A stretch of DNA of 64,000 bases from Escherichia coli (GTDB taxonomy: Bacteria; Pseudomonadota; Gammaproteobacteria; Enterobacterales; Enterobacteriaceae), in the NCBI RefSeq assembly GCF_003991155.1, contig NZ_CP031293.1; one strand, given 5' to 3'. The position numbers were made by a program, and so were the translations under genes. The notes beneath the pieces were generated by a model. It had not been told where the DNA came from, did no database searches, and saw nothing but the letters and a program-made list of their open reading frames with translations. Of this stretch, positions 21,429 through 64,000 are shown piece after piece (position 1 is the stretch's first letter; every line of letters starts with the position of its first letter).

Positions 21429-21434
21429 TTGAAG

Positions 21435-22541: not shown

Positions 22542-25500
22542 ACATATTCACGCTTTCCCTCGGTCTGGCCGTCATGCCGATGGTCGAGGCAGCACCAACC
22601 GCTCAGCAACAGTTGCTGGAGCAAGTTCGGTTAGGCGAAGCGACCCATCGTGAAGACCTGGTGCAACAGTCGTTGTATCGTCTGGAACTTATTGATCCGA
22701 ATAACCCGGACGTCGTTGCCGCCCGTTTCCGTTCTCTGTTACGTCAGGGCGATATTGATGGCGCGCAAAAACAGCTCGATCGGCTGTCGCAGTTAGCGCC
22801 GAGTTCAAATGCGTATAAATCGTCGCGGACCACAATGTTGCTTTCCACGCCGGATGGTCGTCAGGCACTGCAACAGGCAAGATTGCAGGCGACTACTGGT
22901 CATGCAGAAGAAGCTGTGGCGAGTTACAACAAACTGTTCAACGGTGCGCCGCCGGAAGGTGACATTGCCGTCGAGTACTGGAGTACGGTGGCGAAAATTC
23001 CGGCTCGCCGTGGCGAAGCGATTAATCAGCTAAAACGCATTAATGCGGATACGCCGGGCAATACGGGCCTGCAAAACAATCTGGCGCTATTGCTGTTTAG
23101 TAGCGATCGCCGTGACGAAGGTTTTGCCGTCCTGGAACAGATGGCGAAATCAAACGCCGGGCGCGAAGGGGCCTCTAAAATCTGGTACGGGCAGATTAAA
23201 GACATGCCCGTCAGCGATGCCAGTGTGTCGGCGCTGAAAAAATATCTCTCGATCTTTAGTGATGGCGATAGCGTGGCGGCTGCGCAATCGCAACTGGCAG
23301 AACAGCAAAAACAGCTGGCCGATCCTGCTTTCCGCGCTCGTGCGCAAGGGTTAGCGGCGGTGGACTCTGGCATGGCGGGTAAAGCCATTCCCGAACTACA
23401 ACAGGCGGTGCGGGCAAACCCGAAAGACAGTGAGGCTCTGGGGGCGCTGGGCCAGGCGTATTCTCAGAAAGGCGATCGCGCCAATGCGGTGGCGAATCTG
23501 GAAAAAGCCCTCGCACTGGACCCGCACAGCAGCAACAACGACAAATGGAACAGTCTCCTGAAAGTAAACCGCTACTGGCTGGCAATCCAGCAGGGCGATG
23601 CTGCGCTGAAAGCCAATAATCCTGACCGGGCAGAACGCCTGTTCCAGCAGGCGCGTAATGTCGATAACACCGACAGCTATGCAGTGCTGGGGCTGGGCGA
23701 TGTGGCGATGGCGCGCAAAGATTACCCCGCCGCTGAACGCTATTACCAGCAGACGCTGCGTATGGACAGCGGCAACACTAACGCCGTGCGCGGGCTGGCG
23801 AATATTTACCGCCAGCAATCGCCAGAAAAAGCTGAAGCGTTTATCGCCTCGCTCTCTGCCAGTCAGCGGCGTAGCATTGATGATATCGAACGCAGCCTAC
23901 AAAACGACCGTCTGGCACAGCAGGCAGAGGCACTGGAAAACCAGGGCAAATGGGCGCAGGCGGCAGCACTTCAGCGGCAACGACTGGCGCTGGATCCCGG
24001 CAGCGTATGGATTACTTACCGACTTTCGCAGGATCTCTGGCAGGCCGGACAACGCAGCCAGGCTGATACATTAATGCGCAATCTGGCACAGCAGAAGCCG
24101 AACGACCCGGAGCAGGTTTACGCTTACGGGCTGTATCTCTCTGGTCATGACCAGGACAGAGCGGCGCTGGCGCATATCAACAGCCTGCCGCGCGCGCAAT
24201 GGAACAGCAATATTCAGGAACTGGTTAATCGCCTGCAAAGCGATCAGGTGCTGGAAACCGCTAATCGCCTGCGAGAAAACGGCAAAGAAGCTGAAGCGGA
24301 AGCGATGCTGCGCCAGCAACCACCTTCCACGCGCATAGACCTCACGCTGGCTGACTGGGCGCAACAACGACGTGATTACACCGCCGCTCGCGCTGCATAT
24401 CAGAATGTCCTGACGCGGGAGCCAACTAACGCCGACGCCATTCTTGGTCTGACGGAAGTGGATATTGCTGCTGGTGACAAAGCGGCGGCACGTAGCCAGC
24501 TGGCGAAACTGCCTGCCACCGATAACGCCTCGCTGAACACTCAGCGGCGCGTGGCGCTGGCGCAGGCGCAGCTTGGCGATACCGCAGCGGCGCAGCAGAC
24601 GTTTAATAAGTTGATCCCGCAGGCAAAATCTCAGCCACCGTCGATGGAAAGCGCGATGGTGCTGCGCGACGGTGCGAAGTTTGAAGCGCAGGCGGGCGAT
24701 CCAACGCAGGCGCTGGAAACCTACAAAGACGCCATGGTTGCATCCGGTGTGACCACGACGCGTCCGCAGGATAACGACACCTTTACCCGGCTGACCCGTA
24801 ACGACGAGAAAGATGACTGGCTGAAACGCGGCGTGCGCAGCGATGCAGCGGACCTCTATCGCCAGCAGGATCTTAACGTCACCCTTGAGCACGATTATTG
24901 GGGATCGAGCGGCACCGGTGGTTACTCCGATCTGAAAGCGCACACCACTATGTTGCAGGTGGACGCGCCGTATTCTGACGGGCGGATGTTCTTTCGCAGT
25001 GATTTCGTCAATATGAACGTCGGCAGTTTCTCCACTAATGCCGATGGCAAATGGGATGACAACTGGGGCACCTGTACATTACAGGACTGTAGCGGCAACC
25101 GCAGCCAGTCGGATTCCGGTGCCAGCGTGGCGGTTGGCTGGCGAAATGACGTCTGGAGCTGGGATATCGGCACCACGCCGATGGGCTTCAACGTGGTGGA
25201 TGTGGTCGGCGGCATCAGTTACAGCGATGATATCGGGCCGCTGGGTTACACCGTTAACGCCCACCGTCGGCCCATCTCCAGTTCTTTGCTGGCCTTTGGT
25301 GGGCAAAAAGACTCTCCGAGCAATACCGGGAAAAAATGGGGCGGCGTGCGTGCCGACGGCGTGGGGCTAAGCCTGAGCTACGATAAAGGTGAAGCAAACG
25401 GCGTCTGGGCATCGCTTAGTGGCGACCAGTTAACCGGTAAAAATGTCGAAGATAACTGGCGTGTGCGCTGGATGACGGGCTATTACTATAAGGTCATTAA

Positions 25501-47849: not shown

Positions 47850-48578
47850 ATGACTCATGTCTGCTCGGTGATCCTCGTTCGTCGTTCATTCGATATTTAT
47901 CATGAACAGCAAAAAATATCGTTGCATAACGAGAGTATCCTGCTGCTGGATAAAAATTTGGCAGACGATTTTGCGTTTTGTTCACCGGATACACGACGAC
48001 TGGATATCGATGAGCTGACAGTTTGCCATTACTTACAAAATATTCGTCAGATACCACGCAATTTAGGGTTACATAGCAAAGACCGTCTGTTAATTAACCA
48101 GTCACCCCCCATGCCGCTGGTGACGGCGATTTTTGATAGTTTCAATGACTCCGGGGTAAATTCGCCGATACTGAGCAAAATGCTCTATCTTTCCTGTTTA
48201 TCGATGTTTTCTCATAAGAAAGAACTGATCCCCTTACTTTTCAATAGTATCAGTACTGTTTCAGGAAAAGTTGAACGCCTTATTAGCTTTGATATCGCCA
48301 AACGTTGGTATCTGCGCGATATTGCGGAAAGAATGTATACCAGCGAGAGTCTCATCAAAAAAAAGTTGCAGGATGAAAATACCTGTTTCAGTAAAATATT
48401 ACTCGCCTCCAGGATGTCGATGGCCAGACGATTACTCGAGTTACGTCAAATTCCTCTGCATACTATTGCGGAAAAATGTGGCTATAGCAGTACGTCGTAC
48501 TTTATAAACACATTTCGACAATATTATGGTGTAACACCACATCAGTTTGCGCAACATTCGCCAGGTACCTTTTCCTGA
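47850..48578 (+). CDS. gadW: AraC-family acid-resistance regulator GadW
   Basis: 242-aa ORF with C-terminal AraC HTH; position between gadX and mdtF. Confidence 0.9.
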   Translation: MTHVCSVILVRRSFDIYHEQQKISLHNESILLLDKNLADDFAFCSPDTRRLDIDELTVCHYLQNIRQIPRNLGLHSKDRLLINQSPPMPLVTAIFDSFNDSGVNSPILSKMLYLSCLSMFSHKKELIPLLFNSISTVSGKVERLISFDIAKRWYLRDIAERMYTSESLIKKKLQDENTCFSKILLASRMSMARRLLELRQIPLHTIAEKCGYSSTSYFINTFRQYYGVTPHQFAQHSPGTFS

Positions 48579-48940
48579 CATATTTTGCATTTGAATATTG
48601 GTCAGGATCTCACACCTGCTTCATGTGAAACTCTTCCCTGATGATTTCTGCCGGGCTACCGGCTAGTTCTCTTTCGCAGTTTGCCAGGCGGTATAGGTAT
48701 TTTCAGGAGGAAAAGACTCGGCATGTTTGGGATTATTAAGCTGACAATTCATACGATTACGGGAATGTGGGTCAGTATTGTGCTGTTCAAATTGATGACG
48801 AATGGCTGGAGTGGTTTCTACTTTCAGTGCTGTGTACTAAGCCTGGTATTCCTGACGGTTAGCTGGTTGTTGAGTGGTGAATGGTTAGCAGGAAAGAGTA
48901 AGGCTGAACCTTCACGTTCAACCTTACTCTCATTTACACG

Positions 48941-51900
48941 TTACGCTTTTTTAAAGCGGGCAAAGAGATGTTCCACTACAACGAAAAAGACCGGAACAAA
49001 GTAAATTGCCAGCACTGTTGCGGCAAACATCCCGCCCATTACGCCGGTACCTACCGCGTTTTGCGCGCCAGAACCGGCACCATGACTGATAACCAGCGGC
49101 AGCACGCCGAGAATAAAGGCCAGAGAGGTCATCAGGATTGGGCGTAAACGCATTCGCGCCGCTTCGATGATCGCCTCTATCGGCGTTTTCCCTTCTTTCT
49201 GCATCATCTCAACGGCAAATTCGACAATCAGGATGGCGTTTTTGGCGGAAAGCCCGATGGTGGTCAGCAAACCAACCTGGAAGTAGACGTCATTACTTAA
49301 GCCGCGTAGATCGGTGGCCAGTAATGCGCCAACGACGCCTAACGGAACAACCAACATCACCGAGAACGGAATTGACCAGCTTTCATAAAGTGCGGCGAGG
49401 GCGAGGAACACCACGACCAGTGAAATGGCATATAGCGCGGGAGCCTGGTTTGAGGATAACGCTTCCTGATACGACAGTCCGGTCCATGAGTAGCCGACGC
49501 CAGCCGGAAGTTTAGCGACCAGGTCTGCCATAAATTTCATGGCGTCACCGGTACTTTTCCCGGCCGCCGCTTCACCTAAAATCTCCATTGACGGGATGCC
49601 GTTGTAGCGTTCCAGTCGCGGTGAACCATAGGTCCATTCGGTAGACGAGTAGGCAGAAAGCGGTGCCATCGTGCCAGAGGCGTTGCGTACATACCATTGG
49701 TTGATGTTATCCGGCAACATACGGAACGGCGTGCCTGCCTGGACATACACTTTTTTCACCCGCCCCTGGTTGAGGAAGTCGTTCACGTAGCTGCTGCCGA
49801 AGGCGGTGGAAATTGTCTGGTTGATATCAGACAGCGCCACGCCCATAGCCTCGGCTTTCGCAGCGTTGACGTTCACTTTGAACATCGGCGTATCTTCCAG
49901 GCCGTTCGGGCGAACCCCGGTGACCTGATTCGGTGATTGCGCTGCCAGTGATAACAGCTCGTTTCGCGCCTGGGTTAGTTTTTCGTGCCCCAGGTTACCG
50001 TTGTCCAGCAGTTCCATATCAAAACCTGACGCGGTACCCAGTTCAGCCACCGCGGGTAAGTTGAACGGGAAGACGACGGCTTTATTGATACTGCTTAGCG
50101 CAATCATTGCCCGCTGAATAATCGCGGTAACCGAGTTTTCCTCGCCGACACGTTCAGACCACGGCTTGAGGCTGATAAACGCCAGACCGTTGTTTTGCCC
50201 CTGACCACTGAAGCCAAAGCCACCAACGGTAAACACCGACTGAACATTATTTTTCTCTTTTGTCAGATAATAATCCGTCACCTGTTGTAGCACTTTCGTG
50301 GTGTTAACCATGGTGGCACCGGAAGGTAACTGCGCGGTGGTCATAAATACCCCCTGATCCTCTTCTGGTAAGAAAGAGGTCGGCGTGCGCAGGAACAGCA
50401 CCGCCATCCCGGCGCAAATCAGGAGGTAGACCACCATGTAGCGACCGGTACAACGCAACAGCGAGCGGGTGCTATCGGTATAGTGCTGAGTTGATTTTTC
50501 AAACAGCGTGTTGAAGCGTGCGAACAGGGCGTTAGGTTTATGACCGCCTTCCGGCGCGGCTTTCAGAATGGTGGCGCACAGGGCAGGGGTCAGGCTCATT
50601 GCTACAAATACTGAAAGCAGCATGGAGGAGATCAGCGTGATGGAGAACTGGCGGTAGATCTCCCCGGTCGCACCGCTCATAAAGGCCATCGGCATAAACA
50701 CTGCGGAAAGAACAACGGCAATCCCGACCAGCGCACGTTGGATCTGCCCCATCGATTTATGCGTCGCTTCCTTCGGCGGTAGCTTATCTTCCGCAATGAC
50801 ACGCTCGACGTTCTCCACCACCACGATGGCGTCATCCACCAGTAACCCTATCGCCAGCACCATCCCGAACATAGTTAACGTGTTGATGGTGAAACCGACC
50901 GCCGACAAGATCGCAAACGTCCCGAGAATAACCACCGGTACGGCAATCGTCGGGATGATTGTGGCGCGGAAATTCTGCAAAAACAGATACATGACCAGGA
51001 AGACGAGGATGATAGCCTCAACCAGCGTTTTGAAAACTTCCTGAATAGAAATTTTGATAAACGGTGTGGTGTCGTAAGGATAAACCGTCTTCAGGCTTGC
51101 GGGGAAATAGGCTGATAAACGGTTCAGCTCCTCTTTCACCGCTCGCGAGGTATCCAGGGCGTTTGCTCCGGTAGCCAGTTTGATGGCGATCCCGGCAGCA
51201 GGTTTGCCGTTATAGCGCGCCACGGTGGAATAATCTTCCGCCCCAAGTTCGACGCGGGCGACATCACGCAGCAGCACTTGCGAACCATCTTGCTGAACTT
51301 TCAACAGGATTTTGCCAAATTCTTCCGGCGTTTGCAGACGCGTCTGCACAATGATCGAGGCGTTCAGTTGCTGGTCTGCCGCCTGTGGCATGCCACCCAG
51401 TTGACCACCGGAAATCTGGTTGTTTTGCACCTTAATCTGGGAAATAACATCGGAAGGTACCAGGTTATATTTATTGAGTTTTTGCGGGTCCAGCCAGATA
51501 CGCATGGCGTACTCGGAACCAAAGAGCTGTACGCTACCAACGCCCGCGGTACGGCTTAGCGGGTCTTTGATATTAGACGCTACATAGTCGGCGATATCGT
51601 ACTGGTTGAGGCTGCCGTTATCAGAAATAAACGCCGCTACCATCAGGATATTACTGCTCGACTTATCGACGCTAATCCCCTGCTGCTGCACCGCTTCAGG
51701 TAATGAAGGCATAGCGAGTTGCAGTTTATTTTGCACCTGAACCTGTGCGATATCAGGCGATGTCCCAGTCTCGAAGGTCAGAGTAATAGAGGCATTACCC
51801 GCCGCATCACTGGTTGAAGACATGTACATCAGGCCATCAAGCCCATTCATATTTTGCTCAATCACCTGAGTGGCCGAGTCTTCTACCGTTTGCGCATCGG

Positions 51901-52054
51901 CACCTGGATAGGTAGCGCTGACGGTAATGGTCGGTGGCGCAATCTGCGGATACTGCGCAACCGGTAAGTTCATGATCGCCAGACCACCTGCAAGCATCAT
52001 AATAATGGCAAGTACCCAGGCAAAAACCGGGCGATCAATAAAATAGTTAGCCAT
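48941..52054 (-). CDS. mdtF: RND multidrug efflux pump inner-membrane subunit MdtF
   Basis: 1037-aa AcrB-like ORF. Confidence 0.95.
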
Positions 52055-52078
52055 GAAAGTCCCCTTAAGCCTGCAACG

Positions 52079-53236
52079 TTATTGTTTCGATTCGGTGCTG
52101 GCGTTTTCCTGGCTGGAGGAAATTGCTCGTGCTTTGATACCCGGACGAATGCGTTGCAAACCGGAAACGATCACCCGATCGCCAGCCTGCAAGCCAGAGG
52201 TGACAACCCACTGGTCGCCGATGGCTTTGCTGGCTTCAATTTCGCGTAGCTGCACGACATCGTCTTTATCCAGAATGAGTGCCGTTGCTTTACCCTGGGC
52301 GTTGTGGGTGACGCCTTCCTGCGGCACCAGTAATACATTCTGGCGGCTACCTTCATCCACTAATGCCGTGACATACATGCCAGGCAGCAAGTCACCATTT
52401 GGGTTGGGGAAAATCGCCCGTAACGTCACGGAGCCCGTGGTTTCATCTACCGTTGGGTCGGAGAATTTCAGCGTGCCAGTCTGGCTGTAACGTTTACCAT
52501 TTTCCAGATTGAGCTGTACTGGCGTACTGCCCTGAACCTGTTTGATTTGCCCACTGGCGACCTCTTCTTTCATGCGCAAGAAATCCTGCACCGACTGCGT
52601 GAGATCGACATAAATCGGGTCCAGACGTTGTACGGTAACCAGCGAATCTGCCTGATTAGCGGTAACGAGTGCGCCGACGGTCACCGACGATTTCCCGCTG
52701 ACGCCCGTAATCGGCGAGGTGACATTTGCGTATTGCAGGTTGATAGTCGCCTGTTCAACAGCCGCTTTGGCGACGGTGACATTGGCTTCTGCTTCATTCA
52801 ACTGGGTGCGCGCGGTGTCGTAATCCTGACGGCTAACGTAGTTGGTCTTCAGCAACGATGCCTGGCGGTTAAAGGTGATGCGGGCATTGCTGGCGGTAGA
52901 GAGCGCTTTCGCCAGCGAGCCTTTGGCGGAGTTCAGCTCTGCCTGTAAAGGCGCAGGATCAATCTGATACAGCGAATCGCCCTGGTTCACTTTATCGCCT
53001 TCGATAAAGTTGCGTTTAATGATAATACCGCCCACCTGGGGACGTATCTCGGCAACTTCATAAGGAACGGTTCTACCAGGCAATTCGCTCAACACATTGA
53101 CCGAACCGGGGGAGAGTGTGACGACACCGACCTCAGGCGTCATGGCGGCGGCGTTTTCCGCCGATTTGTCATCGCAGGCGGTGAGCATCGCGCCGCAGAA
53201 TAACAACGGTATTAACAGTTTTCTTCTTCTGTTCAT
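52079..53236 (-). CDS. mdtE: RND efflux membrane-fusion protein MdtE
   Basis: 385-aa lipoprotein-type periplasmic adaptor (signal peptide ending LTAC). Confidence 0.95.
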   Translation of the reverse strand: MNRRRKLLIPLLFCGAMLTACDDKSAENAAAMTPEVGVVTLSPGSVNVLSELPGRTVPYEVAEIRPQVGGIIIKRNFIEGDKVNQGDSLYQIDPAPLQAELNSAKGSLAKALSTASNARITFNRQASLLKTNYVSRQDYDTARTQLNEAEANVTVAKAAVEQATINLQYANVTSPITGVSGKSSVTVGALVTANQADSLVTVQRLDPIYVDLTQSVQDFLRMKEEVASGQIKQVQGSTPVQLNLENGKRYSQTGTLKFSDPTVDETTGSVTLRAIFPNPNGDLLPGMYVTALVDEGSRQNVLLVPQEGVTHNAQGKATALILDKDDVVQLREIEASKAIGDQWVVTSGLQAGDRVIVSGLQRIRPGIKARAISSSQENASTESKQ

Positions 53237-53574
53237 TTTAGTCCCTGAAAATTCTTGAGAAATAACGGTTCTTTAAATTGCGCGCGAGGAGAGATATGAG
53301 GGATTTACAGACCAGCGGCATAGTGGGGTTGTCAGCCAGTAAGATGGGATGCAAGCACAGTGATCGACATGGTGAGGTCAACGACAAAAAAAATGTTGCC
53401 GTTCTGCCAACAGTTTCTGCCAGCATTCGGGCAACGAAGGGTTCTACTGGTGGATACACATACCAGGGGAATAAAGTCGTTTTCGTCTCTCCTTCAATAA
53501 TCACCGGGGGTATTGAAATCAGCATCTGCATCCCTCGTCATGCCAGCCATCAATTTCAGTTGCTTATGTCCTTA

Positions 53575-54102
53575 CTAAAAATAAGATGTGATACCCAGGG
53601 TGACGATGTCGCTCATACGTCTTAATTTCAGCTTGTACATAATGTTGAATTTCTGAATCTTTAATGTTTGTTGCGAAATGTTGAGCGTTGACGTGATATT
53701 GCTTTCATTTTTGTTTTTCAGAATCAGTTGCATAATTTTGAACTGATTATGTGAAAAACATAGTTGTGAATTCTTATGGGGCAAGTGTTTACCATAAGTA
53801 ATCTCAAGAAGATTTTTGATACTTTCTTTACGGCTGACAAAATAAATAGGCGCTTTAGCTTTTAGTTTACTGATGTGATAAGGTGCCAAAACAATAATTC
53901 TCTCGGCATCTAATTTCTCCAGAAATTTAATCGCTTCTTCATCAAGGATATGATTGTGATAGGTATCAATGATAACCTTGAAGGGTTTATTGCCTACTTT
54001 TTTGATCTCTGACAGGGAATTGATTTTTATCATTTCGTGATTATCTTTCAACTGCCAAAAGCCCTGTAAAAGAAAAGAATCTTTCGTCATGAGAAAAATC
54101 AT
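53575..54102 (-). CDS. gadE: LuxR-family acid-resistance master activator GadE
   Basis: 175-aa product MIFLMTKDSFLLQGFWQ... from the internal ATG of ORF 53575..54180. Confidence 0.9.
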   Translation of the reverse strand: MIFLMTKDSFLLQGFWQLKDNHEMIKINSLSEIKKVGNKPFKVIIDTYHNHILDEEAIKFLEKLDAERIIVLAPYHISKLKAKAPIYFVSRKESIKNLLEITYGKHLPHKNSQLCFSHNQFKIMQLILKNKNESNITSTLNISQQTLKIQKFNIMYKLKLRRMSDIVTLGITSYF

Positions 54103-54899
54103 AACTTGCTCCTTAGCCGTTATCGTTTCGAACATGTCATCCTTTTCATTATTTACATCCTTGTCCGAATCGTTGTTCAATATAGTAAACGCCTATAAGA
54201 ACTTTGCCCTTCGTGAACTAATACGTCTATTAACACTAATCAATACTTCAGATTTATCCATCACGCACTCCATATATTGATCCTAAGTAAGATTCCTGGT
54301 TGTTATCAGTTTGTAACCAGTAAACAAAAGGTTAACTTTTGCGGATTACTGCCCAAGAATAAGTTATCAATAACCAGTTTGTGATCTCTGAAGAATATTA
54401 CTAAAGTTAAAATGTAATCCGATTTAAATATCGAGTCTCCTTGTTTCGACTTAGGCTGGCAATTGGATTGCCAGCTTTCTTTTAACGCATTGAAATTACC
54501 TGATTAAATAACTCATTCATGTCTTCAGGTTTTTATATAGCGTCTGGAGACACGGATATTTATGCAATGTAATCAACGCCAGTTGCAAAAAAATGAACCC
54601 GGATTACTTATTTAACCGCCTATAGCATCAACGCTTACGGAACTCTTTGTTCACTTTCCCACAGCACTTTTAAAACATTAAACCTGACCACGGAAAATAT
54701 CAGCCATGATAATGTTTGAAATGGCTAATTTGCCATGGAATGAAAAAATCAGATTAAATTCAGTAGGTTGAAATAATCAACAGCAGGCAATTGTTTCAAT
54801 GATAGTGCGTAATTGAACTGAAACACTGTATAGCTAAGAGAGTATTAACTGGATCATAGTCACTTAATGTGACTATGATCCAAGTGGAAATAGGGATAA

Positions 54900-55472
54900 T
54901 TATTGCTTTTTAACGAACAAACTGGCGAAGCTGAACAGACTGGCGGCGCTAAATATCAGTTCAATTCCCACCAGTGTGGAAACCAGCGTTACCGACACCA
55001 TCGGCGTAGCACCAAGGAATATCCAGGCAATGACGATATCCAGCACACCAATAACGAGCTGTAGCCAACTGCCTTTCATTGAACGCTGACGATACCAACT
55101 CATCAGGCGAATAACCCCTGCCACACAGAACAAACCGGCAATAAATGCCGCAATGGCAAAAATGCCCAGCTCTGGTGCGCGGATGAAGAAATAGCCGATC
55201 AATAAATAGGCGACTGCGACGAGGAAACCGGATAATACCGGCCAGAAATTATGACTGCGGTTGCTGAATAACCCGACAATAAGCGCAATACCCGAGCAGA
55301 TTAATAATGCACCCACTACTGTGCTTAAAATATCGCCAGAGACGAACGGAAAACTGATACACAGCAACCCGACGATAAACAGCAGCACGGCAATAAACTG
55401 GATTGCTCTGCGATGTTTTTTAAGCATCTCCAGATCAAACTTCAAAATTGTTGCCTTATCTATATATAACAT
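54900..55472 (-). CDS. hdeD: Acid-resistance membrane protein HdeD
   Basis: 190-aa multi-helix membrane protein divergent from hdeAB. Confidence 0.9.
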   Translation of the reverse strand: MLYIDKATILKFDLEMLKKHRRAIQFIAVLLFIVGLLCISFPFVSGDILSTVVGALLICSGIALIVGLFSNRSHNFWPVLSGFLVAVAYLLIGYFFIRAPELGIFAIAAFIAGLFCVAGVIRLMSWYRQRSMKGSWLQLVIGVLDIVIAWIFLGATPMVSVTLVSTLVGIELIFSAASLFSFASLFVKKQ

Positions 55473-55726
55473 AGAACCACCCTATAAAATTAAGAAGAAA
55501 ATCCCCTGCTATCAATCTATGCCAAAAACGCGTGTAAGAATGCAGTCGATTTAATAAAAATTTCCTAATTACAGTATCTGATGCATCTGTAACTCATTGT
55601 ATTGAAATAAAAATATCTGATTTTGATATTTTCCATCAACATGACATATACAGAAAACCAGGTTATAACCTCAGTGTCGAAATTGATTCGTGACGGCTCT
55701 TTCACTTTATAGTTGAGGATATTACG

Positions 55727-56059
55727 ATGAAAAAAGTATTAGGCGTTATTCTTGGTGGTCTGCTTCTTCTGCCAGTAGTGAGCAATGCAGCGGATGCACA
55801 AAAAGCAGCTGATAACAAAAAACCGGTCAACTCCTGGACCTGTGAAGATTTCCTGGCTGTGGACGAATCCTTCCAGCCAACTGCAGTTGGTTTTGCTGAA
55901 GCACTGAACAACAAAGATAAACCAGAAGATGCGGTTTTAGATGTTCAGGGTATTGCAACCGTAACCCCAGCTATCGTTCAGGCTTGTACTCAGGATAAAA
56001 AAGCCAGCTTTAAAGATAAAGTTAAAGGCGAATGGGACAAAATTAAGAAAGATATGTAA
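55727..56059 (+). CDS. hdeA: Periplasmic acid-stress chaperone HdeA
   Basis: 110-aa ORF with signal peptide MKKVLGVILGGLLLLPVVSNA. Confidence 0.95.
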   Translation: MKKVLGVILGGLLLLPVVSNAADAQKAADNKKPVNSWTCEDFLAVDESFQPTAVGFAEALNNKDKPEDAVLDVQGIATVTPAIVQACTQDKKASFKDKVKGEWDKIKKDM

Positions 56060-56174
56060 TTCCGGGAATGCGTTACATCGTATTTCCTTGCATATTGAAC
56101 AGGCCGGAATATCTTCTTTAAAAGCAGCTATTCCTCCTGTTTGTATATAATCTCTATATTGAATGGGTTACAAA

Positions 56175-56501
56175 ATGAACATTTCATCTCTCCGTAAAGC
56201 GTTTATTTTTATGGGCGCTGTAGCGGCTTTGTCACTGGTGAACGCACAATCTGCGCTGGCAGCCAATGAATCCGCTAAAGATATGACCTGCCAGGAATTT
56301 ATTGATCTGAATCCAAAGGCAATGACACCAGTTGCGTGGTGGATGCTGCATGAAGAAACAGTATATAAAGGTGGCGATACCGTTACTTTAAATGAAACCG
56401 ATCTCACTCAAATTCCTAAAGTGATCGAATACTGCAAGAAAAACCCGCAGAAAAATTTGTATACCTTCAAAAATCAAGCATCTAATGACTTGCCGAATTA
56501 A
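56175..56501 (+). CDS. hdeB: Periplasmic acid-stress chaperone HdeB
   Basis: 108-aa product MNISSLRKAFIFMGAVAALSLVNA... from the internal ATG of ORF 56163..56501. Confidence 0.9.
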   Translation: MNISSLRKAFIFMGAVAALSLVNAQSALAANESAKDMTCQEFIDLNPKAMTPVAWWMLHEETVYKGGDTVTLNETDLTQIPKVIEYCKKNPQKNLYTFKNQASNDLPN

Positions 56502-56517
56502 TAAGGTACAAGTAAAA

Positions 56518-56556
56518 AGGAGTAGCAAGTTGAGCCATCTTGCTGCTCCTTTTTGC
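56518..56556 (+). terminator. Hairpin plus T-run after hdeB
   Basis: AGGAGTAGCAAG...CTTGCTGCTCCT followed by TTTTGC. Confidence 0.5.
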
Positions 56557-56564
56557 ATTTTTAT

Positions 56565-57212
56565 ATGACAGCAGAATTTATTATACGACTTATACTTGCG
56601 GTAATTGCCTGTGGCGCTATTGGCATGGAAAGGCAAATGCGCGGCAAAGGAGCAGGGTTACGCACACATGTATTAATTGGCATGGGAAGCGCCCTGTTTA
56701 TGATTGTTTCGAAATATGGTTTTGCTGACGTGCTGTCTTTAGGTCACGTCGGACTGGACCCCAGCCGTATTGCTGCTCAGGTGGTGACGGGCGTCGGGTT
56801 TATCGGTGCAGGTAACATTCTCGTTCGTAACCAAAATATTGTAGGTCTGACGACGGCAGCGGATATCTGGGTGACCGCCGCCATTGGTATGGTTATTGGC
56901 AGCGGTATGTACGAACTGGGTATTTATGGTTCAGTGATGACCTTGCTGGTGCTGGAAGTCTTCCATCAATTAACCTTCCGCCTGATGAACAAAAATTACC
57001 ATTTACAGCTGACATTAGTGAACGGTAATACGGTATCAATGCTCGACTGGTTTAAGCAGCAAAAAATAAAAACGGATTTAGTTTCGTTGCAGGAAAATGA
57101 AGATCATGAAGTGGTCGCCATTGATATCCAGCTTCATGCCACGACGTCGATAGAAGATCTGTTGCGATTATTAAAAGGTATGGCAGGGGTGAAAGGTGTT
57201 TCAATTAGCTAA
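56565..57212 (+). CDS. yhiD: MgtC-family inner-membrane protein YhiD
   Basis: 215-aa product MTAEFIIRLILAVIACGAIGMERQ... from the internal ATG. Confidence 0.85.
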   Translation: MTAEFIIRLILAVIACGAIGMERQMRGKGAGLRTHVLIGMGSALFMIVSKYGFADVLSLGHVGLDPSRIAAQVVTGVGFIGAGNILVRNQNIVGLTTAADIWVTAAIGMVIGSGMYELGIYGSVMTLLVLEVFHQLTFRLMNKNYHLQLTLVNGNTVSMLDWFKQQKIKTDLVSLQENEDHEVVAIDIQLHATTSIEDLLRLLKGMAGVKGVSIS

Positions 57213-57263
57213 TCTGTATAGTTATTTATTCGCAGGAGTACCAGTGCGGTACTCCTGTTGGTT

Positions 57264-58034
57264 TTAATGATCGAGGACGATCAGTGGTGAATGGTTGGCA
57301 GGATCTTTAAGTACGGTAATATCCGCGCCGTAGAGCATGGTCAGCGCCTGCTGTGTCAATACGTCCTGCGGCTTACCATTTGCGATAACCTTTCCTTTTT
57401 GCATTAATACAACACGGTCTGCATAACGCGCGGCAAGATTTAGATCGTGCAATACGCAACAAACATTGAACTGCCGTTCGTGAACTAACTGGCGTAATAA
57501 ACGAAACAAGTGCTGCTGATGGTGAATATCCAGCGCCGAAGTTGGTTCATCAAGAAATAACCATTTCGGTGAGGGAGTAGGTTCCCAGAGTTGTACCAGC
57601 AGGCGCGCTAATTGCACGCGCTGTTGTTCACCACCGGATAATTGCCGATAGTCGCGGTTTGCTAACGCCTGACAGTCACATAACGCCATTATTTGTGCTG
57701 TTTCATTATCCTGATTACCAGTGCGATGCGGATGCCGCCCCATCTGGATAACTTCTTGTACGCTGAATGGAAACGCCATGTGGCTATTTTGACGCATCAC
57801 GGCCCGGTGTTTCGCCAGTTCAGTAATCGACCATTCATTTAATGGCTTATTAAACAACCGACATTCGCCGCTATCAGGTTGAAGATAGCCGGTTAGCTGG
57901 CGAAGCAGCGTAGATTTTCCCGCACCATTAGGGCCGAGGATGGCAACAATTTCCCCACCGGGAAAAGTCAGCGAGACATTATCAGTCAGACGCCGCCCCT
58001 GAAGGCTATAAACCAGATTCTGGGCGCTGATCAT
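57264..58034 (-). CDS. chuV: Haemin ABC transporter ATPase ChuV (ShuV/HmuV)
   Basis: Start placed at [16 protein letters not shown]... (256 aa), overlapping the chuU stop (ATGA); Walker [10 protein letters not shown], signature LSGGEQQR. Confidence 0.85.
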
Positions 58035-59023
58035 GTGATCCTCCGGTTGCGCAGAATCAACCACATAAAATAAGGGCCACCAAGCAGGCTGGTTAATAAT
58101 CCCACGGGCATTTCTGCTGGCTGTACCAGCGTGCGGGCAAGCGTGTCTGCCATCAGCAATAAACAGGCTCCGGCGAGGGCGGAACAAGGGATTAGCCAGC
58201 GGTGATTTGCCCCGGTAGTCATGCGAATCAGATGCGGGATCACCAGGCCAATAAAGCCGATAATGCCGCTTACCGATACGGCAGCACCAACGAGCAGTGA
58301 GCTCACTAACAGTAATTGCTGGCGTTTACGCTTCACGTTCACGCCGAGGTAGTGGGCTTCTTCATCACCGAGCTGCAGTAAATTCAGCGTTCCGGCGAGA
58401 CAAGTTGTTGCGATAATGGCCGGTAGGATGAATGAACTGGCAACCAATAACGTCGGCCATTGCGCCTGTCCAAGATTGCCCATCATCCACAATGTGAGTT
58501 GTCGTAGCTGCTGCTCATCGCCGATATAGCTCAGGATGCCGATCGCTGCGCCGCACAGGGCATTGATGGCGATACCGGCGAGTAATAATTGCATCATGCT
58601 GCCATCGCGATGGCGCTGCGTGATGAGAAAAATGATGGTGCAGACCACTAAACTTCCGGCAATGGCAAACACCATTTGCTCATAGAGCACCAGCACCACT
58701 GGGAAGGAGAAGGGCAGCACAATAGCAACGCCAACCATTAATGCAGAACCGCTACTGACGCCAAGTAATCCAGGGTCAGCCATTGGGTTGCGAAAAAGCC
58801 CTTGCATAATTACCCCGGCGGTTGCCAACGCTGCACCTACCAGCACCGCCAGCAAAACCCGTGGTAGACGAATATTGAGCCAGATATCGCGGTATTCCTC
58901 ATCAAAAAGGGCATCAAAACTGATCTTTAACGCTCCCTGACTGGCACCAAACAGCACCAGAGCGAGCAATAATAGTGATAGCCCCATAAAGACCCTGGCG
59001 GAAGAGAGTGAATCCTTGAGCAC
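58031..59023 (-). CDS. chuU: Haemin ABC transporter permease ChuU (ShuU)
   Basis: 330-aa FecCD-family permease. Confidence 0.9.
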
Positions 59024-59071
59024 GCAAAACTCCGTTACGACATTACGGCGCGGACATACCGCGCCGGGGGA

Positions 59072-59695
59072 TCACGCCGGTTTCAGGTCCGGTTCAATCA
59101 GACTGTAGACCTGCTGGTTAAGTGCTGGCGCATTTGCCAGTTCATGGATATGTGCGGCGACATCGGCACGGTGAACAAAACCATGACACTCCTGATTTTG
59201 TATCCGTTGTGCTTTGCCCGTTGCCGCACCATCAAGCAGACCGCCAGGGCGGAGAATGGCATAATCAAGCTGGCTGGTTTGCAACCAGCTTTCCGCCAGC
59301 GTTTTTTCCCGTACCGCCTGACCAAACGCAGCCTTTGCCCGCTCTGATAAAAACGGCCAGCTATCGCCGCATCCCAAAGAGGTCACCAGAATCATGCGAC
59401 TGATGCCAGCCTTCTCGGCCTCGTCAATCACTGTTCTGTGCGCCAGATAATCCTGAGCTCCGCCCATTGTTGAGATGATAAGCGCATCCGGGCCAGCTGC
59501 GCGGCAAGCAGCCGCGACTACGCTGGCATCACAGGCGTCGCCTGTAAAAACCTTTACGCCTTGTTGCGCCAGTTTCGTGGCGGCATCAGCATGACGAATG
59601 ACAGCAACGACCGGACGTTGTTCCGCCAGCGCCAGTTCAAGCGTTCTGGCACCCACACCTTTTCCGCCTGCGCCAAAGAGTAGCCACGGCGTCAT
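59072..59695 (-). CDS. chuY: ChuY, NAD(P)-binding reductase of the haem-utilisation cluster
   Basis: 207-aa ORF with Rossmann-type N-terminus; conserved position between chuX and chuU. Confidence 0.8.
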   Translation of the reverse strand: MTPWLLFGAGGKGVGARTLELALAEQRPVVAVIRHADAATKLAQQGVKVFTGDACDASVVAAACRAAGPDALIISTMGGAQDYLAHRTVIDEAEKAGISRMILVTSLGCGDSWPFLSERAKAAFGQAVREKTLAESWLQTSQLDYAILRPGGLLDGAATGKAQRIQNQECHGFVHRADVAAHIHELANAPALNQQVYSLIEPDLKPA

Positions 59696-60189
59696 CAGGC
59701 GTGTTCCTTTAACGATGCTGCCAGAGCATGGAAGGCGCTGACCTGTTCGCTCAGGAGCTGACGATGGTCATCCCTGCCGAGGAAGATTTTCAGCATTGCG
59801 CTGCCTTCTTTGTTGAAAAAGAGAATGGATGCGGTGTCCATGCCCATAAATTTACGTTCGATCAAGGCAATATGTGTGCAGTTTTCTGCTTTGATATGCC
59901 CGGACATGCCGTGCTTTCCGCGTAGGTTGAAATAGCCGTGGCGGTGGAAACCCGAAGGCAGTTCGCCGCTAAATTCGAGGATGACATCGGCAGTATGTAC
60001 TAACGTGGTGACGTTGCCCCATTCGCAGACGGTATCCCAGACAGTATCGAATTTATCACCTGACACAACAGTCGGAGAGGGCAGATTTTTCACTACCTCC
60101 AGCAGCGTGGTGTTGTATTGTTCGGCGATCGCCTCCAGCGTACCGTCCGGCTCCGTTTTCAAAAATTCCTGTAACGAGACATGGCTCAT
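59695..60189 (-). CDS. chuX: ChuX, haem-utilisation carrier protein
   Basis: 164-aa ORF in the conserved position. Confidence 0.8.
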   Translation of the reverse strand: MSHVSLQEFLKTEPDGTLEAIAEQYNTTLLEVVKNLPSPTVVSGDKFDTVWDTVCEWGNVTTLVHTADVILEFSGELPSGFHRHGYFNLRGKHGMSGHIKAENCTHIALIERKFMGMDTASILFFNKEGSAMLKIFLGRDDHRQLLSEQVSAFHALAASLKEHA

Positions 60190-60201
60190 AAATCACTCCT
60201 G

Positions 60202-61539
60202 TTATGGTTTTTCAAGCGCAATTGCTGGCGCATTAAGTACCTGAATCAGTTCATTAAGAGACTGCAAAATGTTGCTTGCCCAGAAACGACCTTCATTGGT
60301 CAACCGCAGACACGTTGACGCATCGCGGCTTAAGCCTTTTTGGTGCCACTGGGCCAGTAACGGCGCGAGTTTTTCGGCATGTGGCGTAAGTTCGTCCAGC
60401 GGTACACGCGCCGTTTCAATGCCCGACTGCAAGGTATGACGCCACTGCGCGTTACGTTCGGCGTTACGCATGATCATCATCAGCGGTTTTTTGCCTGCCG
60501 CGACGGATTCATGCCAGGTCTGAAGATTGCGTTCGTTCATCCAGGAGTAACCATTAATCGAACCACCGGCTCCAGAACCAAAGGCCAGACAATCGGCACC
60601 TTGTTTAATCAGCAGGTTATAGAGATTGCGTTCGCGTGTGGTACGGCCCCAGTGGCTGTTACTGATGCAGCGCCAACCGGCATCGTCCATAAAATCACAC
60701 CCTTGCAGGTAAAGATCGCGACGTTCTGCCGGAGAGGGCACGGTAGTGCGCCCATTTTCCACGGCTTTGCCCAGCGGTGTATTGGGCAGGACATTGAGCG
60801 CATAGAGATCGACGCCGTCGAGACCGATATCGCGGGCAATAGCCAGATCTTCTCCCCAGGTTTGCGCATCCTGACCCGGCAGACCAAACAGCAGGTCACA
60901 GACCACCGCGGCACGGTCGCGTTTGACCAGGCTTTCCATAAACGCAATAGCGGTTGGGCCATCCGAGGTGCGGGCCATTTTCTTGCGGATTTTGCTGTTA
61001 AACGACTGAATACCAATTGAGAAGCGGTTTGCTCCTGCATCAAGGCAAGCATCGATTCGCTCAGCGTCAAAATTCAGTACCCGGCCTTCGATAGTGATTT
61101 CACAATCAGGGGCCAGTGGCAGCTTTTCTCGTAATGTGGTGATGATTCTGGCCAAATCGTGTGCCGAAAGCGCGGAAGGCGTACCGCCACCGAAATAGAC
61201 CGCGTGGATGGGGGCAGACTGATGCAATACGCTGTCTGCTTCCCGTTCTATTTCACGAATCAGGGCGTCGGTATAATGAGCACACGCATCTTCATTAAAA
61301 CGGTTCTGATAAAAACCACAAAACGTGCAGTGTGTTGCACAAAAAGGAATGTGTAGATAAACCAGTCGCTTACGTGGTGATACCGTTTGATTGAGCATCT
61401 CTTGCCAGGTCTGTGCCAGTTGCTCTTTGGCAACTGGAATGGCCCCACGAAACGGCATCATGGCGCGCCTGTCTTTAAAGGGCTGATCACCGTCTAAAGC
61501 AAAATGTGGCGTGAGATCCAGGGTGTTATTTGTGTTCAT
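60202..61539 (-). CDS. chuW: ChuW, radical-SAM haem-degrading enzyme (HemN-like)
   Basis: 445-aa ORF with radical-SAM motif CATHCTFC. Confidence 0.9.
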   Translation of the reverse strand: MNTNNTLDLTPHFALDGDQPFKDRRAMMPFRGAIPVAKEQLAQTWQEMLNQTVSPRKRLVYLHIPFCATHCTFCGFYQNRFNEDACAHYTDALIREIEREADSVLHQSAPIHAVYFGGGTPSALSAHDLARIITTLREKLPLAPDCEITIEGRVLNFDAERIDACLDAGANRFSIGIQSFNSKIRKKMARTSDGPTAIAFMESLVKRDRAAVVCDLLFGLPGQDAQTWGEDLAIARDIGLDGVDLYALNVLPNTPLGKAVENGRTTVPSPAERRDLYLQGCDFMDDAGWRCISNSHWGRTTRERNLYNLLIKQGADCLAFGSGAGGSINGYSWMNERNLQTWHESVAAGKKPLMMIMRNAERNAQWRHTLQSGIETARVPLDELTPHAEKLAPLLAQWHQKGLSRDASTCLRLTNEGRFWASNILQSLNELIQVLNAPAIALEKP

Positions 61540-61558
61540 TCGTCTGATTTAAATCCAT

Positions 61559-62392
61559 TTATTGCGGCCAAAGCTGCTGGTGTAAAGACTCAACGACATC
61601 AGCAATACGCGGACCCATTCCCAGAATCAGGTTTTGATCAACGGTGATAATGCGCTGGTTCTTCCAGGCGGCGGTGTGGGTAATTCCGGCAATAGAACGT
61701 AGCCGATTAATATCGCCATCGACCATTTGTGAGGTGACGACAATCACTTCAGGGTTAGCCGCAATCAGCGATTCCGCGCTGTAGCTTTTGTACTGCTGGT
61801 GGGTAGCGACGTTTTCTGCTCCGGCAAGCGAAAGAATGGCGTCCGCGACGCTGCCTTTACCGGCAACCTGTGGCGCACTTCCGCCTGCGGAGAGAATAAA
61901 CATGGCTTTAACCGGGGCTTTTTTGGCCGCCACGTTTTGCTGTACTCGCTCCAGGCGTTGGTTGATCTGTGTCACCAGCGCCTCGCCTTGTTCAGGAACC
62001 TGTAGCGTTTTTGCCAGTTGGCGAATGTTGGCGTACATCTGCTCAAGGGTGGCAGGCACACGCGGCAGGGTGACGACGTTGACTTTCTGCGCTCGTAGTT
62101 GGTCGAGCACAATTTGTGGCCCGGCATCCTGCCAGGTAATTACGCTATCCGGGCGAAGTGACAAAATGCCTTCGCTGCTGAGTTGTTTCCAGTAACCAAT
62201 ATGCGGCAGTCTGGCGGTTTCTGGTGGATAAGATGTCGTTTCATCGACACCAACCACGCGTTTGCCAGCGCCCATCGCGTAGATTAGCTCCGTCAGCGAT
62301 CCTCCTGCGACCACGATACGTTCGGCAGCCGTTACGCTAAAAGTCCAGCTAAGAGCCAGTAATGCCGTAAACAATTTTTTTCGTTTTACCAT
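61559..62392 (-). CDS. chuT: Periplasmic haemin-binding protein ChuT (ShuT)
   Basis: Start placed at MVKRKKLFTALLALSWTFSVTAA (Sec-type signal peptide); an upstream ATG at 62473 is an alternative; the ORF-track start at 62551 lies upstream of the Fur box and is unlikely. Confidence 0.75.
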   Translation of the reverse strand: MVKRKKLFTALLALSWTFSVTAAERIVVAGGSLTELIYAMGAGKRVVGVDETTSYPPETARLPHIGYWKQLSSEGILSLRPDSVITWQDAGPQIVLDQLRAQKVNVVTLPRVPATLEQMYANIRQLAKTLQVPEQGEALVTQINQRLERVQQNVAAKKAPVKAMFILSAGGSAPQVAGKGSVADAILSLAGAENVATHQQYKSYSAESLIAANPEVIVVTSQMVDGDINRLRSIAGITHTAAWKNQRIITVDQNLILGMGPRIADVVESLHQQLWPQ

Positions 62393-62497
62393 GGTCTTCG
62401 CGGCAGAGACCACGGCTGAAATACATAACGTTAGTGGGGAAAAAAGAAACGGCCTGGTGATGATCCTTGGCATAATGTGAGAACTCTTATCAAATTG

Positions 62498-62519
62498 AGA
62501 ATGATCATGATTATCATTT
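62498..62519. promoter_or_regulatory. Fur box in the chuT promoter region
   Basis: GAGAATGATCATGATTATCATT resembles the Fur consensus GATAATGATAATCATTATC. Confidence 0.6.
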
Positions 62520-62847
62520 GAGTTATATATGAAATACAACCGTCGATTCAATACGCACGGCGTTACAAGCGTATTTATTTTTGATTTTTATCAAGATGCT
62601 TCGTCAGCTAATGTTCTTGTTACCGATTAAATTTCAGCGCGGGAAAAAGCTGAGAACCCGGAGATATCGCGGCTTGCAGAGCAAAGAGAAGAGAAAATTA
62701 TCACTGTTAACGACAACGTTTTGTGATGAGGTTGTGGGGGGATAGTCATAAACACAGGATGGTTTTCTGGATGCTGGATAGATTTCATAACCCCCTGTTT
62801 ATTGTGTTAATGGCGGTTAAAAAAAGCTTGATCATAAAAAATTGATC

Positions 62848-62866
62848 GATAATAATTCTCATTATC
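62848..62866. promoter_or_regulatory. Fur box in the chuA promoter region
   Basis: GATAATAATTCTCATTATC matches the Fur consensus closely. Confidence 0.65.
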
Positions 62867-63124
62867 ACGTTTGAGTTTAACAAAATATGACATCATGGAT
62901 AACAAAATCATATCTTTTGTAAGGGAAAACGCACAGCACTCTTCACTTCAGACGTGGCGTACTACTTTGCCTGACAAAGAGGGCGTGCTTTTGCTGAATT
63001 ATCAGAAATATTCGGCAATTTTACGGGATATATACGCTAATAGCTTCCCGTGGTGATATCTAATCATTTGAATTGTAAATAAATTTATTTTTCGCCAGCC
63101 ACCCCGGTATTAACCCAGGCAGCC

Positions 63125-63156
63125 AGCATTTTTTATTTTCCTCATGGAGAATCGCT
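63125..63156 (+). promoter_or_regulatory. Candidate FourU-type RNA thermometer around the chuA Shine-Dalgarno
   Basis: U-runs (TTTTTTATTTTCC) directly 5' of CATGGAGA (the SD) could pair with it. A FourU thermometer in the shuA/chuA leader is established knowledge; the fold was not computed. Confidence 0.35.
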
Positions 63157-64000
63157 ATGTCACGTCCGCAATTTACCTCGTTGCGTTTGAGTTTGTTGGC
63201 TTTGGCTGTTTCTGCCACCTTGCCAACATTTGCTTTTGCTACTGAAACCATGACCGTTACGGCAACCGGGAATGCACGTAGTTCCTTCGAAGCGCCTATG
63301 ATGGTCAGCGTTATCGACACTTCCGCTCCTGAAAATCAAACGGCTACTTCAGCCACCGATCTGCTGCGTCATGTTCCTGGAATTACTCTTGATGGTACCG
63401 GACGAACCAACGGTCAGGATGTAAATATGCGTGGCTATGATCATCGCGGCGTGCTGGTTCTTGTCGATGGTGTTCGCCAGGGAACGGATACCGGACACCT
63501 GAATGGCACTTTTCTCGATCCGGCGCTGATCAAGCGTGTTGAGATTGTTCGCGGACCTTCAGCATTACTGTATGGCAGTGGCGCGCTGGGTGGAGTGATC
63601 TCCTACGATACGGTCGATGCAAAAGATTTATTGCAGGAAGGACAACGCAGTGGTTTTCGTGTCTTTGGTACTGGCGGCACGGGGGACCATAGCCTGGGAT
63701 TAGGCGCGAGCGCGTTTGGGCGAACTGAAAATCTGGATGGTATTGTGGCCTGGTCCAGTCGCGATCGGGGTGATTTACGCCAGAGCAATGGTGAAACCGC
63801 GCCGAATGACGAGTCCATTAATAACATGCTGGCGAAAGGGACCTGGCAAATTGATTCAGCCCAGTCTCTGAGCGGTTTAGTGCGTTACTACAACAACGAC
63901 GCGCGTGAACCAAAAAATCCGCAGACTGTTGAGGCTTCTGATAGCAGCAACCCGATGGTTGATCGTTCAACAATTCAACGCGATGCGCAGCTTTCTTATA
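63157..64000 (+). CDS. chuA: TonB-dependent outer-membrane haem receptor ChuA (ShuA), 5' portion; continues beyond the window
   Basis: Open frame from the ATG at 63157 (MSRPQFTSLRLSLLALAVSATLPTFAFA, TonB box ETMTVTA) to the window edge without a stop; SD GGAG 7 nt upstream. Confidence 0.9.
   Translation, partial: MSRPQFTSLRLSLLALAVSATLPTFAFATETMTVTATGNARSSFEAPMMVSVIDTSAPENQTATSATDLLRHVPGITLDGTGRTNGQDVNMRGYDHRGVLVLVDGVRQGTDTGHLNGTFLDPALIKRVEIVRGPSALLYGSGALGGVISYDTVDAKDLLQEGQRSGFRVFGTGGTGDHSLGLGASAFGRTENLDGIVAWSSRDRGDLRQSNGETAPNDESINNMLAKGTWQIDSAQSLSGLVRYYNNDAREPKNPQTVEASDSSNPMVDRSTIQRDAQLSY

Follow-up and report, generated by a model that had tools for sequence, protein, structure and literature searches.

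The chu haem-uptake locus as a probable old, non-mobile allele at the yhiD–dctR site of the Escherichia acid fitness island

The haem-uptake cluster that closes a 64,000-nucleotide stretch of Escherichia coli DNA (hereafter the window) is, very probably, the chu (shu) haem locus, O-island 140, present at its single conserved site between yhiD and dctR as an old, non-mobile allele. Nothing we found speaks against identifying the locus as chu. The arrangement is already known: the shu locus was described by Wyckoff et al. 1998, a source we take as it is cited in PMC5799925 and PMC4746246, and it has since been treated as O-island 140 and in the 2018 xenoGI study (PMC5799925, PMC10540162, PMC9144400). 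The position of chu in the acid fitness island has likewise been described before, and the location itself offers the field nothing new. To this published picture we make a modest addition, a base-exact definition of both alleles at the site. We also report that the short sequence occupying the empty site is conserved across species, which bears on how the presence or absence of chuA is read in evolutionary terms. The gene is one of the four Clermont phylotyping PCR markers, and the chu system is acknowledged as a virulence factor in both extraintestinal and enterohaemorrhagic E. coli.

Gene content and control of the cluster

The last acid-fitness-island gene ahead of the chu DNA is yhiD (56565–57212, plus strand), a member of the MgtC/SapB family supported by its open reading frame (ORF), by NCBIfam NF007431 (398 bits) and by the RefSeq annotation. 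It is followed on the minus strand by chuV, a haem ABC transporter ATPase (57264–58034; ORF, RefSeq and NCBIfam NF010068 with 395 bits, cutoff 261), and chuU, the haem ABC transporter permease (58031–59023; ORF, RefSeq and NCBIfam search). Next on that strand come chuY, an anaerobilin reductase placed by RefSeq annotation (59072–59695; no match in the NCBIfam HMM search), and chuX (HutX), a cytosolic haem carrier (59695–60189; TIGR04108, 210 bits, and RefSeq). The strand continues with chuW (HutW), a radical-SAM anaerobic haem-degrading methyltransferase (60202–61539; TIGR04107, 570 bits, and RefSeq), and chuT, a periplasmic haem-binding protein (61559–62473; ORF, RefSeq and NCBIfam search). 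On the plus strand lies chuA, the TonB-dependent haem/haemoglobin receptor, cut by the window end after its first 281 codons (63157–64000; RefSeq, NCBIfam and primers). The Clermont chuA primers, with sequences taken from PMC10132334, match it exactly and bound a 288-bp amplicon at 63392–63679. The remaining gene, chuS, falls outside the window, at 16789–17817 of an identical record (L001).

Both the genes present and their arrangement, chuV-U-Y-X-W-T divergent from chuA(-chuS), are those of the chu locus. An earlier note, written from the letters of the window, had placed the yhiD stop at 57212 and the chuV stop at 57264 and had given the same gene order; ORFs and RefSeq agree on all of these. 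ChuV, ChuX and ChuW give NCBIfam equivalog matches above cutoff, and gene names agree with RefSeq record NZ_CP029747.1, which is 100% identical over 48400–64000. For chuT the annotated start is 62473, and a Met at 62392 opens a signal-peptide-like sequence; judged from these features, the Met at 62392 is more likely to be the true start.

The protein families identified, together with the literature cited, suggest how the system works. ChuA would import haem through the outer membrane in a TonB-driven step, and ChuT, ChuU and ChuV would carry it through the periplasm and inner membrane. ChuS would degrade haem aerobically, while ChuW, ChuX and ChuY would do so anaerobically and so release iron.

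Between the two transcription units lies a divergent chuT/chuA control region of 680–760 bp. When we scanned the whole 64 kb with a 19-bp Fur consensus, the five best matches all fell in this spacer, as expected from the Fur-box-containing divergent promoter region proposed earlier; in shuffled sequence, 0.1 hits reach 15 matches or better. One or two predicted Fur boxes (62497–62521; 16/19 and 15/19 matches) lie at the chuT promoter. A further predicted box at 62848–62866 (17/19, the top match in the 64 kb) overlaps a promoter-like site for chuA found by promoter scan at 62828–62856. By consensus match, then, both divergent promoters carry putative Fur sites.

The promoter-like site implies a chuA leader of ~290 nt, which falls within the 278–342 nt measured for shuA (PMC3660397). 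Spanning the ribosome-binding site and start codon, at 63128–63159 on the plus strand, is a match to the shuA/chuA FourU RNA thermometer (Rfam RF02597; gathering score 58, observed score 60.1 bits, E 1.2e-7). The FourU hairpin UUUUCCUCAUGGAGAA is present in the computed fold, and score and fold together place a FourU element at the chuA ribosome-binding site. Control of shuA/chuA by Fur and FourU has been reported (PMC3660397). Under such control, Fur would repress the chuT and chuA promoters under iron-replete conditions, and at low temperature the hairpin in the ~290-nt leader would block translation.

Junctions and setting in the acid fitness island

The chu DNA is chromosomal and lies between yhiD and dctR (yhiF), two convergent genes of the acid fitness island, matching the reported insertion of O-island 140 between yhiF and yhiD (PMC10540162). 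The cluster had been said to abut the acid fitness island. The coordinates of that statement hold, but chu is embedded in the island, between the acid-island genes yhiD and dctR; in the identical record chuS, dctR and slp come just beyond the window end. Similarly, a single contiguous block of about 20 kb had been proposed, which fits the 19.9 kb inside the window and falls short of the whole gadA-to-slp block of ~23.4 kb. For the acid fitness island, a length of 22.7 kb has been published for EDL933 and one of 13.6 kb for MG1655 (PMC9144400). In base composition it is the flanks that stand out: GC is 50.5% in chu and 51–52% in the window, against 39.5% in gadE–yhiD and 42.7% in dctR–slp; chu itself does not show the departure from host composition expected of an integrase-mobilised island.

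The spacer between yhiD and chuV measures 51 bp (57213–57263), where the earlier note had estimated about 50 bp. In MG1655 just 41 bp separate yhiD from dctR, in line with the absence of the cluster from K-12 that the same note had claimed. The comparison with K-12 that it suggested gives an exact insertion point. Homology is lost 5 bp past the yhiD stop, at a left breakpoint marked by TCTGT (57213–57217), the final 5 bp common to the K-12 empty site, and is regained at the dctR stop. Direct comparison and BLAST both place the breakpoint here; in chu-positive genomes the BLAST match of the K-12 junction runs as far as query base 110, 5 bp beyond the stop codon. The chu-specific DNA (O-island 140), delimited by comparison with K-12 and by GC, occupies 57218–64000 in the window. 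In full it comprises 9,059 bp (L001 8819–17877), its right end being equivalent to window position 66276, and K-12 has a 36-bp filler there instead. The event is no plain insertion: the 36 bp are a different sequence.

Just inside the left breakpoint, in island DNA, the plus strand carries a predicted intrinsic-terminator hairpin (57232–57258) with an 11-bp stem followed by TGGTTTT, recovered by terminator scan and by folding (−19.6 kcal/mol, z −3.8). Its orientation suits termination of yhiD. The K-12 filler has no comparable fold (z about 0), and folding predicts a strong hairpin at both island ends. The left hairpin also folds on the minus (chuV) strand, where it has no U-tract, so termination on that strand may be weak.

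Weak termination of this kind would suit a functional reading of the co-location, under which being neighbours would bring haem uptake and acid resistance under common regulation, for example by shared silencing or by chuV read-through antisense to yhiD–hdeBA. Reports summarised in PMC10540162 point the same way, with chu up-regulated together with acid-fitness-island genes under acid stress and in macrophages. We nevertheless consider this coupling improbable, given the strong hairpin at each island end, the separate promoters with predicted Fur control, and the many genomes (3,179) that keep the acid island without chu.

Distribution and probable age of the two alleles

The cluster is carried by 2,238 of 5,426 complete E. 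coli genomes (about 41%), always on the chromosome, and 3,179 of the 5,426 have the K-12-type empty site. The left junction is the same, at 95.9% identity or more, in 2,235 of the 2,238 carriers. Homology across 57264–64000, the finding that would speak against an island absent from chu-negative strains, was seen in those 2,238 genomes only; K-12 strains matched the junction query over its yhiD part alone and gave nothing beyond yhiD. The nearest non-identical chu sequence found belongs to SMS-3-5, which we take to be of phylogroup F, and the carriers presumably include the basal lineages B2, F and E. A list of phylogroups B2, D and E, as first proposed for the cluster, is incomplete, leaving out F and G.

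Could chu be a conventional site-specific mobile island that has since lost its integrase and attachment sites? Its boundaries are sharp and fall at two stop codons, and a related operon can evidently be mobilised: Providencia rettgeri plasmids (pNR1418-2, NZ_LC507075.1) carry a six-gene chuTWXYUV-like operon that keeps the chu order and spacing and shares 76% of its nucleotides with chu over 5 kb. That operon lies by ISCR1 and adjoins a class 1 integron with blaIMP-70; it differs from chu in having its receptor gene co-oriented with the operon and in lacking both chuS and the acid-island flanks. The signatures of mobility are nonetheless missing from the E. coli locus, as the earlier note had anticipated for integrase, tRNA and repeat scar. 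No integrase appears in the RefSeq annotation of the identical record, scanning 23.6 kb in and around the island for tRNA genes gave none, and a search for direct or inverted repeats pairing the two island ends, including the far end, was empty. The phage search gave no chu match. Among the 5,426 genomes E. coli plasmids held no chu copy, the sole two 'plasmid' matches being 4.9-Mb records that are really chromosomes, and all 2,235 full copies sit at one site; neither a copy with these ends elsewhere on a chromosome nor a circular excised form was seen. A formerly mobile island is accordingly a highly improbable account of the locus.

Evidence from beyond E. coli comes from five informative loci, and it shows both states of the spacer. 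In three other Escherichia genomes that represent GTDB species (L003, L004 and L006), the left breakpoint is again where chu DNA begins; the whole cluster and the island-end hairpin are present in L003 and L004, and L006 retains chuA–chuS alone. The site is empty in E. whittamii (L005) and Escherichia sp. E1V33 (L007). The K-12 filler aligns with the fillers of these two genomes gapless and in register, with 21 of 35 positions identical (shuffle p about 0.0005), in one ungapped 35-nt alignment of short sequences. Because the filler is homologous across species, we regard the empty site as an old allele and not as the scar of a recent clean deletion.

That deletion is the most direct competing account: an E. 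coli ancestor would have had chu, and the K-12-type absence would stem from one recent, clean loss of 9 kb. It would accommodate the presence of chu in about 41% of genomes, presumably including the basal lineages (B2, F and E), and its occurrence at this site in further Escherichia species. The xenoGI study names insertion followed by clean deletion as one possibility. We think it unlikely. A de novo deletion would not recreate 36 bp that have a homologue in the empty sites of E. whittamii and Escherichia sp. E1V33, and those 36 bp are absent from the island ends: when the filler was aligned locally to each end with two scoring schemes and shuffled controls, no alignment reached significance (lowest p 0.046 in 21 tests). 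Citrobacter, moreover, has a convergent pair of yhiD and a dctR-like gene without chu; no alignment of its spacer to the filler was obtained. As candidate traces of a deletion scar or duplicated target we considered TGTGCGG-AGG in L003 and a 4-bp TCTG microhomology, and rejected both when they failed shuffle-tested alignment.

The same loci bear on a suggestion of the xenoGI paper, that the acid-resistance genes and chu were gained jointly, in a single transfer of one island. xenoGI infers an identical last common ancestor for the two gene sets, and chu and its flanks are similarly diverged between species. This joint arrival is hard to square with the mosaic GC content of the region, with old empty alleles in at least two other species, and with Citrobacter, which has hdeDAB along with yhiD and the dctR-like gene but not chu; we give it little credence.

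Our preferred reading of the origin is that chu would be one of two old alleles of the yhiD–dctR spacer and no self-mobile island. The first is the 9,059 bp of chu, bounded on either side by a predicted terminator hairpin, and the second a filler of 36–41 bp; each occurs in E. coli and also elsewhere in the genus. The chu genes have diverged to a similar extent as their neighbours: between L001 and L003 or L004 the chu genes are 90–96% identical, and the flanking genes are 85–95% (L003) and 91–98% (L004) identical. The state of a given lineage could then reflect inheritance, or allele exchange by homologous recombination through the flanks, so that movement by integrase or transposase would be unneeded. 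The flanking genes cluster by species and not by allele, a grouping that fits allele exchange, incomplete lineage sorting or repeated independent loss alike. The stronger version, in which presence or absence of chu is a polymorphism that predates E. coli and whose two alleles (9 kb of chu or ~36–41 bp of conserved filler) persist in several Escherichia species and are swapped whole by homologous recombination through the acid-island flanks, we put forward tentatively, as possible rather than probable. If true, such a two-allele polymorphism would account for a phylogenetic distribution remarked on as 'puzzling' since 1998, and the chuA phylotyping marker would show which allele a strain carries instead of recording that the genes were gained or lost.

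Relation to known haem loci

Orthologous or related loci are known from several organisms. Vibrio hutWXZ/hutBCD and Yersinia hmu share families with chu (the HutW/HutX equivalogs, a BtuCDF-type ABC importer and a TonB-dependent receptor), but they lie in other genomic contexts, ChuS and ChuY are unlike HutZ, and these systems are distant homologues only. The shu locus of Shigella dysenteriae is orthologous and shares Fur control and the FourU leader thermometer (Rfam RF02597; PMC3660397). O-island 140/chu of E. coli O157:H7 EDL933 (chuS chuA / chuT chuW chuX chuY chuU chuV) has the same gene set, order and orientation and the same insertion point between yhiD and dctR (yhiF). Over 57264–64000 the two are 96.3% identical, an allelic divergence of only about 3.7%. 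The present strain differs additionally in nearby gadX, within the gadA-to-slp block, where an IS1 element splits the gene.

Boundaries and content of the chu cluster

The gene yhiD ends at 57212 (ORF list and sequence) and is followed by a 51-bp spacer (57213-57263), beyond which six genes run on the minus strand from 57264 to about 62473. Several RefSeq chromosomes match 56400-64000 at 100% identity, and one of these, NZ_CP029747.1, does so over 48400-64000; its annotation gives the order yhiD, haem ABC ATPase (chuV), chuU, chuY, chuX/hutX, chuW/hutW and chuT, then chuA and chuS. NCBIfam equivalog models matched ChuV (395 bits, cutoff 261), HutX (210 bits, cutoff 110) and HutW (570 bits, cutoff 400), and NCBIfam identifies the truncated chuA as the N-terminus of a TonB-dependent haem receptor. 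ORFs, annotation and protein families bear out the earlier note on the yhiD stop (57212), the chuV stop (57264) and the order chuV-U-Y-X-W-T then chuA. Exact matches to the Clermont chuA primers at 63392 and 63679 place the standard 288-bp phylotyping amplicon inside the window.

In K-12 MG1655, yhiD and dctR are convergent and adjacent, with 41 bp between them. Base-by-base comparison with K-12 sets the left break 5 bp past the yhiD stop codon, after TAA-TCTGT, and the right break at the dctR stop codon. Between these breaks the window lineage carries 9,059 bp (from 57218; positions 8819-17877 in L001, a database record identical across chu that runs past the window end), whereas K-12 carries an unrelated 36-bp filler, GTGGCAGCGTAGCCAGACTCACCGTAAGCCTGAAAT. 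The comparison proposed earlier therefore yields exact breaks, but describes a replacement rather than a plain insertion. When the K-12 junction was used as a BLAST query, bases 1-110 and 146-241 matched chu-positive genomes, giving the same breaks genome-wide. The cluster does not abut the acid fitness island (AFI), as had been supposed, but is nested within it; the acid, efflux and haem block is contiguous as claimed, although it totals about 23.4 kb rather than 20 kb.

Strong hairpins are predicted at both island ends: on the left at 57232-57258 (stem of 11 bp, T-tract on the yhiD strand, z-score -3.8), and on the right downstream of chuS, at about 17829-17862 of L001 (z -3.5). Folding the K-12 filler gave no significant structure. 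The GC content of the island (50.5%) is ordinary for E. coli, and that of its AFI flanks is atypical (39.5% for gadE-yhiD, 42.7% for dctR-slp). We found no tRNA in the 23.6 kb around the island, no annotated integrase or transposase inside or beside it, no phage match to chu and no plasmid copy of chu among 5,426 complete E. coli genomes. These scans agree with the earlier description of a roughly 50-bp junction free of integrase, tRNA or repeat scar, and the suggested search for direct repeats at the far end, extended to inverted ones, found none paired with the left.

The placement of chu within the AFI is already published, in descriptions that reportedly originate with Wyckoff et al. 1998. 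What we add is an exact definition of the alleles, together with evidence for cross-species conservation of the filler at empty sites; the earlier observation is confirmed, and its interpretation, with minor corrections, is supported. In EDL933 the AFI spans about 22.7 kb, compared with 13.6 kb in MG1655 (PMC9144400), and a bioRxiv paper describes the same arrangement.

Two alleles, probably old, at one site

Across the 5,426 genomes, 2,238 matched 57264-64000, always on the chromosome and essentially at full length in 2,235; the left junction was the same as in the window in 2,235 (identity at least 95.9%). Another 3,179 had the K-12-type empty junction, so the site is essentially two-state. 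Only the yhiD portion of the junction query matched K-12 strains, and chu-negative genomes held no sequence homologous to 57264-64000, in line with the expected absence from K-12. Carriers include 536 and NRG 857C (which we take to be phylogroup B2), SMS-3-5 (presumably F), and O157:H7 and O145:H28 strains (presumably E); the assignment of chu to B2/D/E omits F and G.

Scanning a single genome from each GTDB species for YhiD gave five informative Escherichia loci, a small sample outside E. coli. In two (L003, L004) the cluster is complete; both its position and its junction sequence are those of the window lineage. Their chu genes are 90-96% identical to those of the window lineage and their flanking genes 85-95% (L003) and 91-98% (L004), so chu has diverged alongside its neighbours and is not a recent arrival. 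Escherichia sp. MOD1-EC7003 keeps chuA-chuS alone, an ERIC-like repeat replacing chuTWXYUV. This deletion (5885-6405 of that locus) begins at most 3 bp from the island's left edge, and a second, inverted ERIC-like copy lies in the chuA leader.

E. whittamii and Escherichia sp. E1V33 have empty sites whose fillers align with that of K-12 ungapped from end to end (21/35 identical, shuffle p ~0.0005), and in Citrobacter yhiD and a dctR-like gene form a convergent pair that lacks chu. We considered whether the empty site is a fresh scar of clean deletion. On the few genomes sampled outside E. coli this is unlikely, since the filler is conserved across species and unlike the island ends (no significant similarity to either under two scoring schemes). 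Within this small sample outside E. coli, both states are old, and the K-12-like empty state is itself an allele with a separate history.

The chuT-chuA control region

The five top Fur-consensus matches of the entire 64 kb all fall in the chuT-chuA spacer, as the postulated divergent, Fur-box-containing promoter region would predict. The best predicted box, at 62848-62866, matches 17/19 consensus positions, and boxes at 62497-62521 match 16/19 and 15/19; shuffled sequence gave ~0.1 matches at 15 or more positions. The first overlaps a promoter-like site (62828-62856), from which the chuA leader would measure ~290 nt; for shuA, RT-PCR gave a leader length of 278-342 nt (PMC3660397). The Rfam shuA/chuA thermoregulator matches at 63128-63159 (60.1 bits, gathering score 58), and in its predicted fold a UUUU stretch pairs with the ribosome-binding site. 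In S. dysenteriae and E. coli, this element was shown by mutagenesis to give 25/37 C control (PMC3660397).

The RefSeq chuT start (62473) lies only 24 nt from a Fur box. A Met at 62392 opens the signal-peptide-like MVKRKKLFTALLALSWTFSVTAAE, giving a 277-aa product, and the RefSeq version probably carries 27 extra codons at its start.

Neighbouring loci and database records

The AFI activator gene gadX (45881-47481) is interrupted about 100 nt into the gene by IS1 (45984-46750), with the 9-bp target duplication GTGATCTGG on either side (45975-45983 and 46751-46759); the insertion may alter acid-resistance regulation. Only 45 of the 5,426 genomes share the junction, and the first 30 of them listed have many members in common with the strains 100% identical over chu, so it marks one lineage. 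In the closest record, 2016C-3878, bcsG is split by IS621; the window has no such insertion (about 12095-12109), and its bcsG appears intact, so the window belongs to a sister strain of that record. An Rfam match to the sRNA ES205 (106.5 bits; 53386-53457, minus strand) lies just downstream of gadE, where K-12 annotates the sRNA GadF.

A Providencia rettgeri plasmid (AP025671.1) carries, at 5088-14269 of the retrieved locus, a chuTWXYUV-like operon and a TonB receptor gene. This segment has the gene order of the window at 76% nucleotide identity and directly adjoins ISCR1 of a class 1 integron with blaIMP-70; a resistance plasmid has thus acquired a haem-utilisation operon. An 8.6-kb contig titled Flavobacterium paronense CECT 8460 holds hdeD, hdeA, hdeB, yhiD, chuV and chuU with frameshift-like noise and is almost certainly E. 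coli contamination of that assembly. The sole full-length chu matches in PLSDB, NZ_CP141089.1 and NZ_CP134663.1, are ~4.9 Mb "plasmids" that are E. coli chromosomes. Past slp, L001 has a stretch of 30-35% GC (19373-22604) before arsC and arsB, encoding a 407-aa hypothetical protein, a permease and an ArsR-family regulator; at the equivalent position K-12 has yhiS disrupted by IS5.
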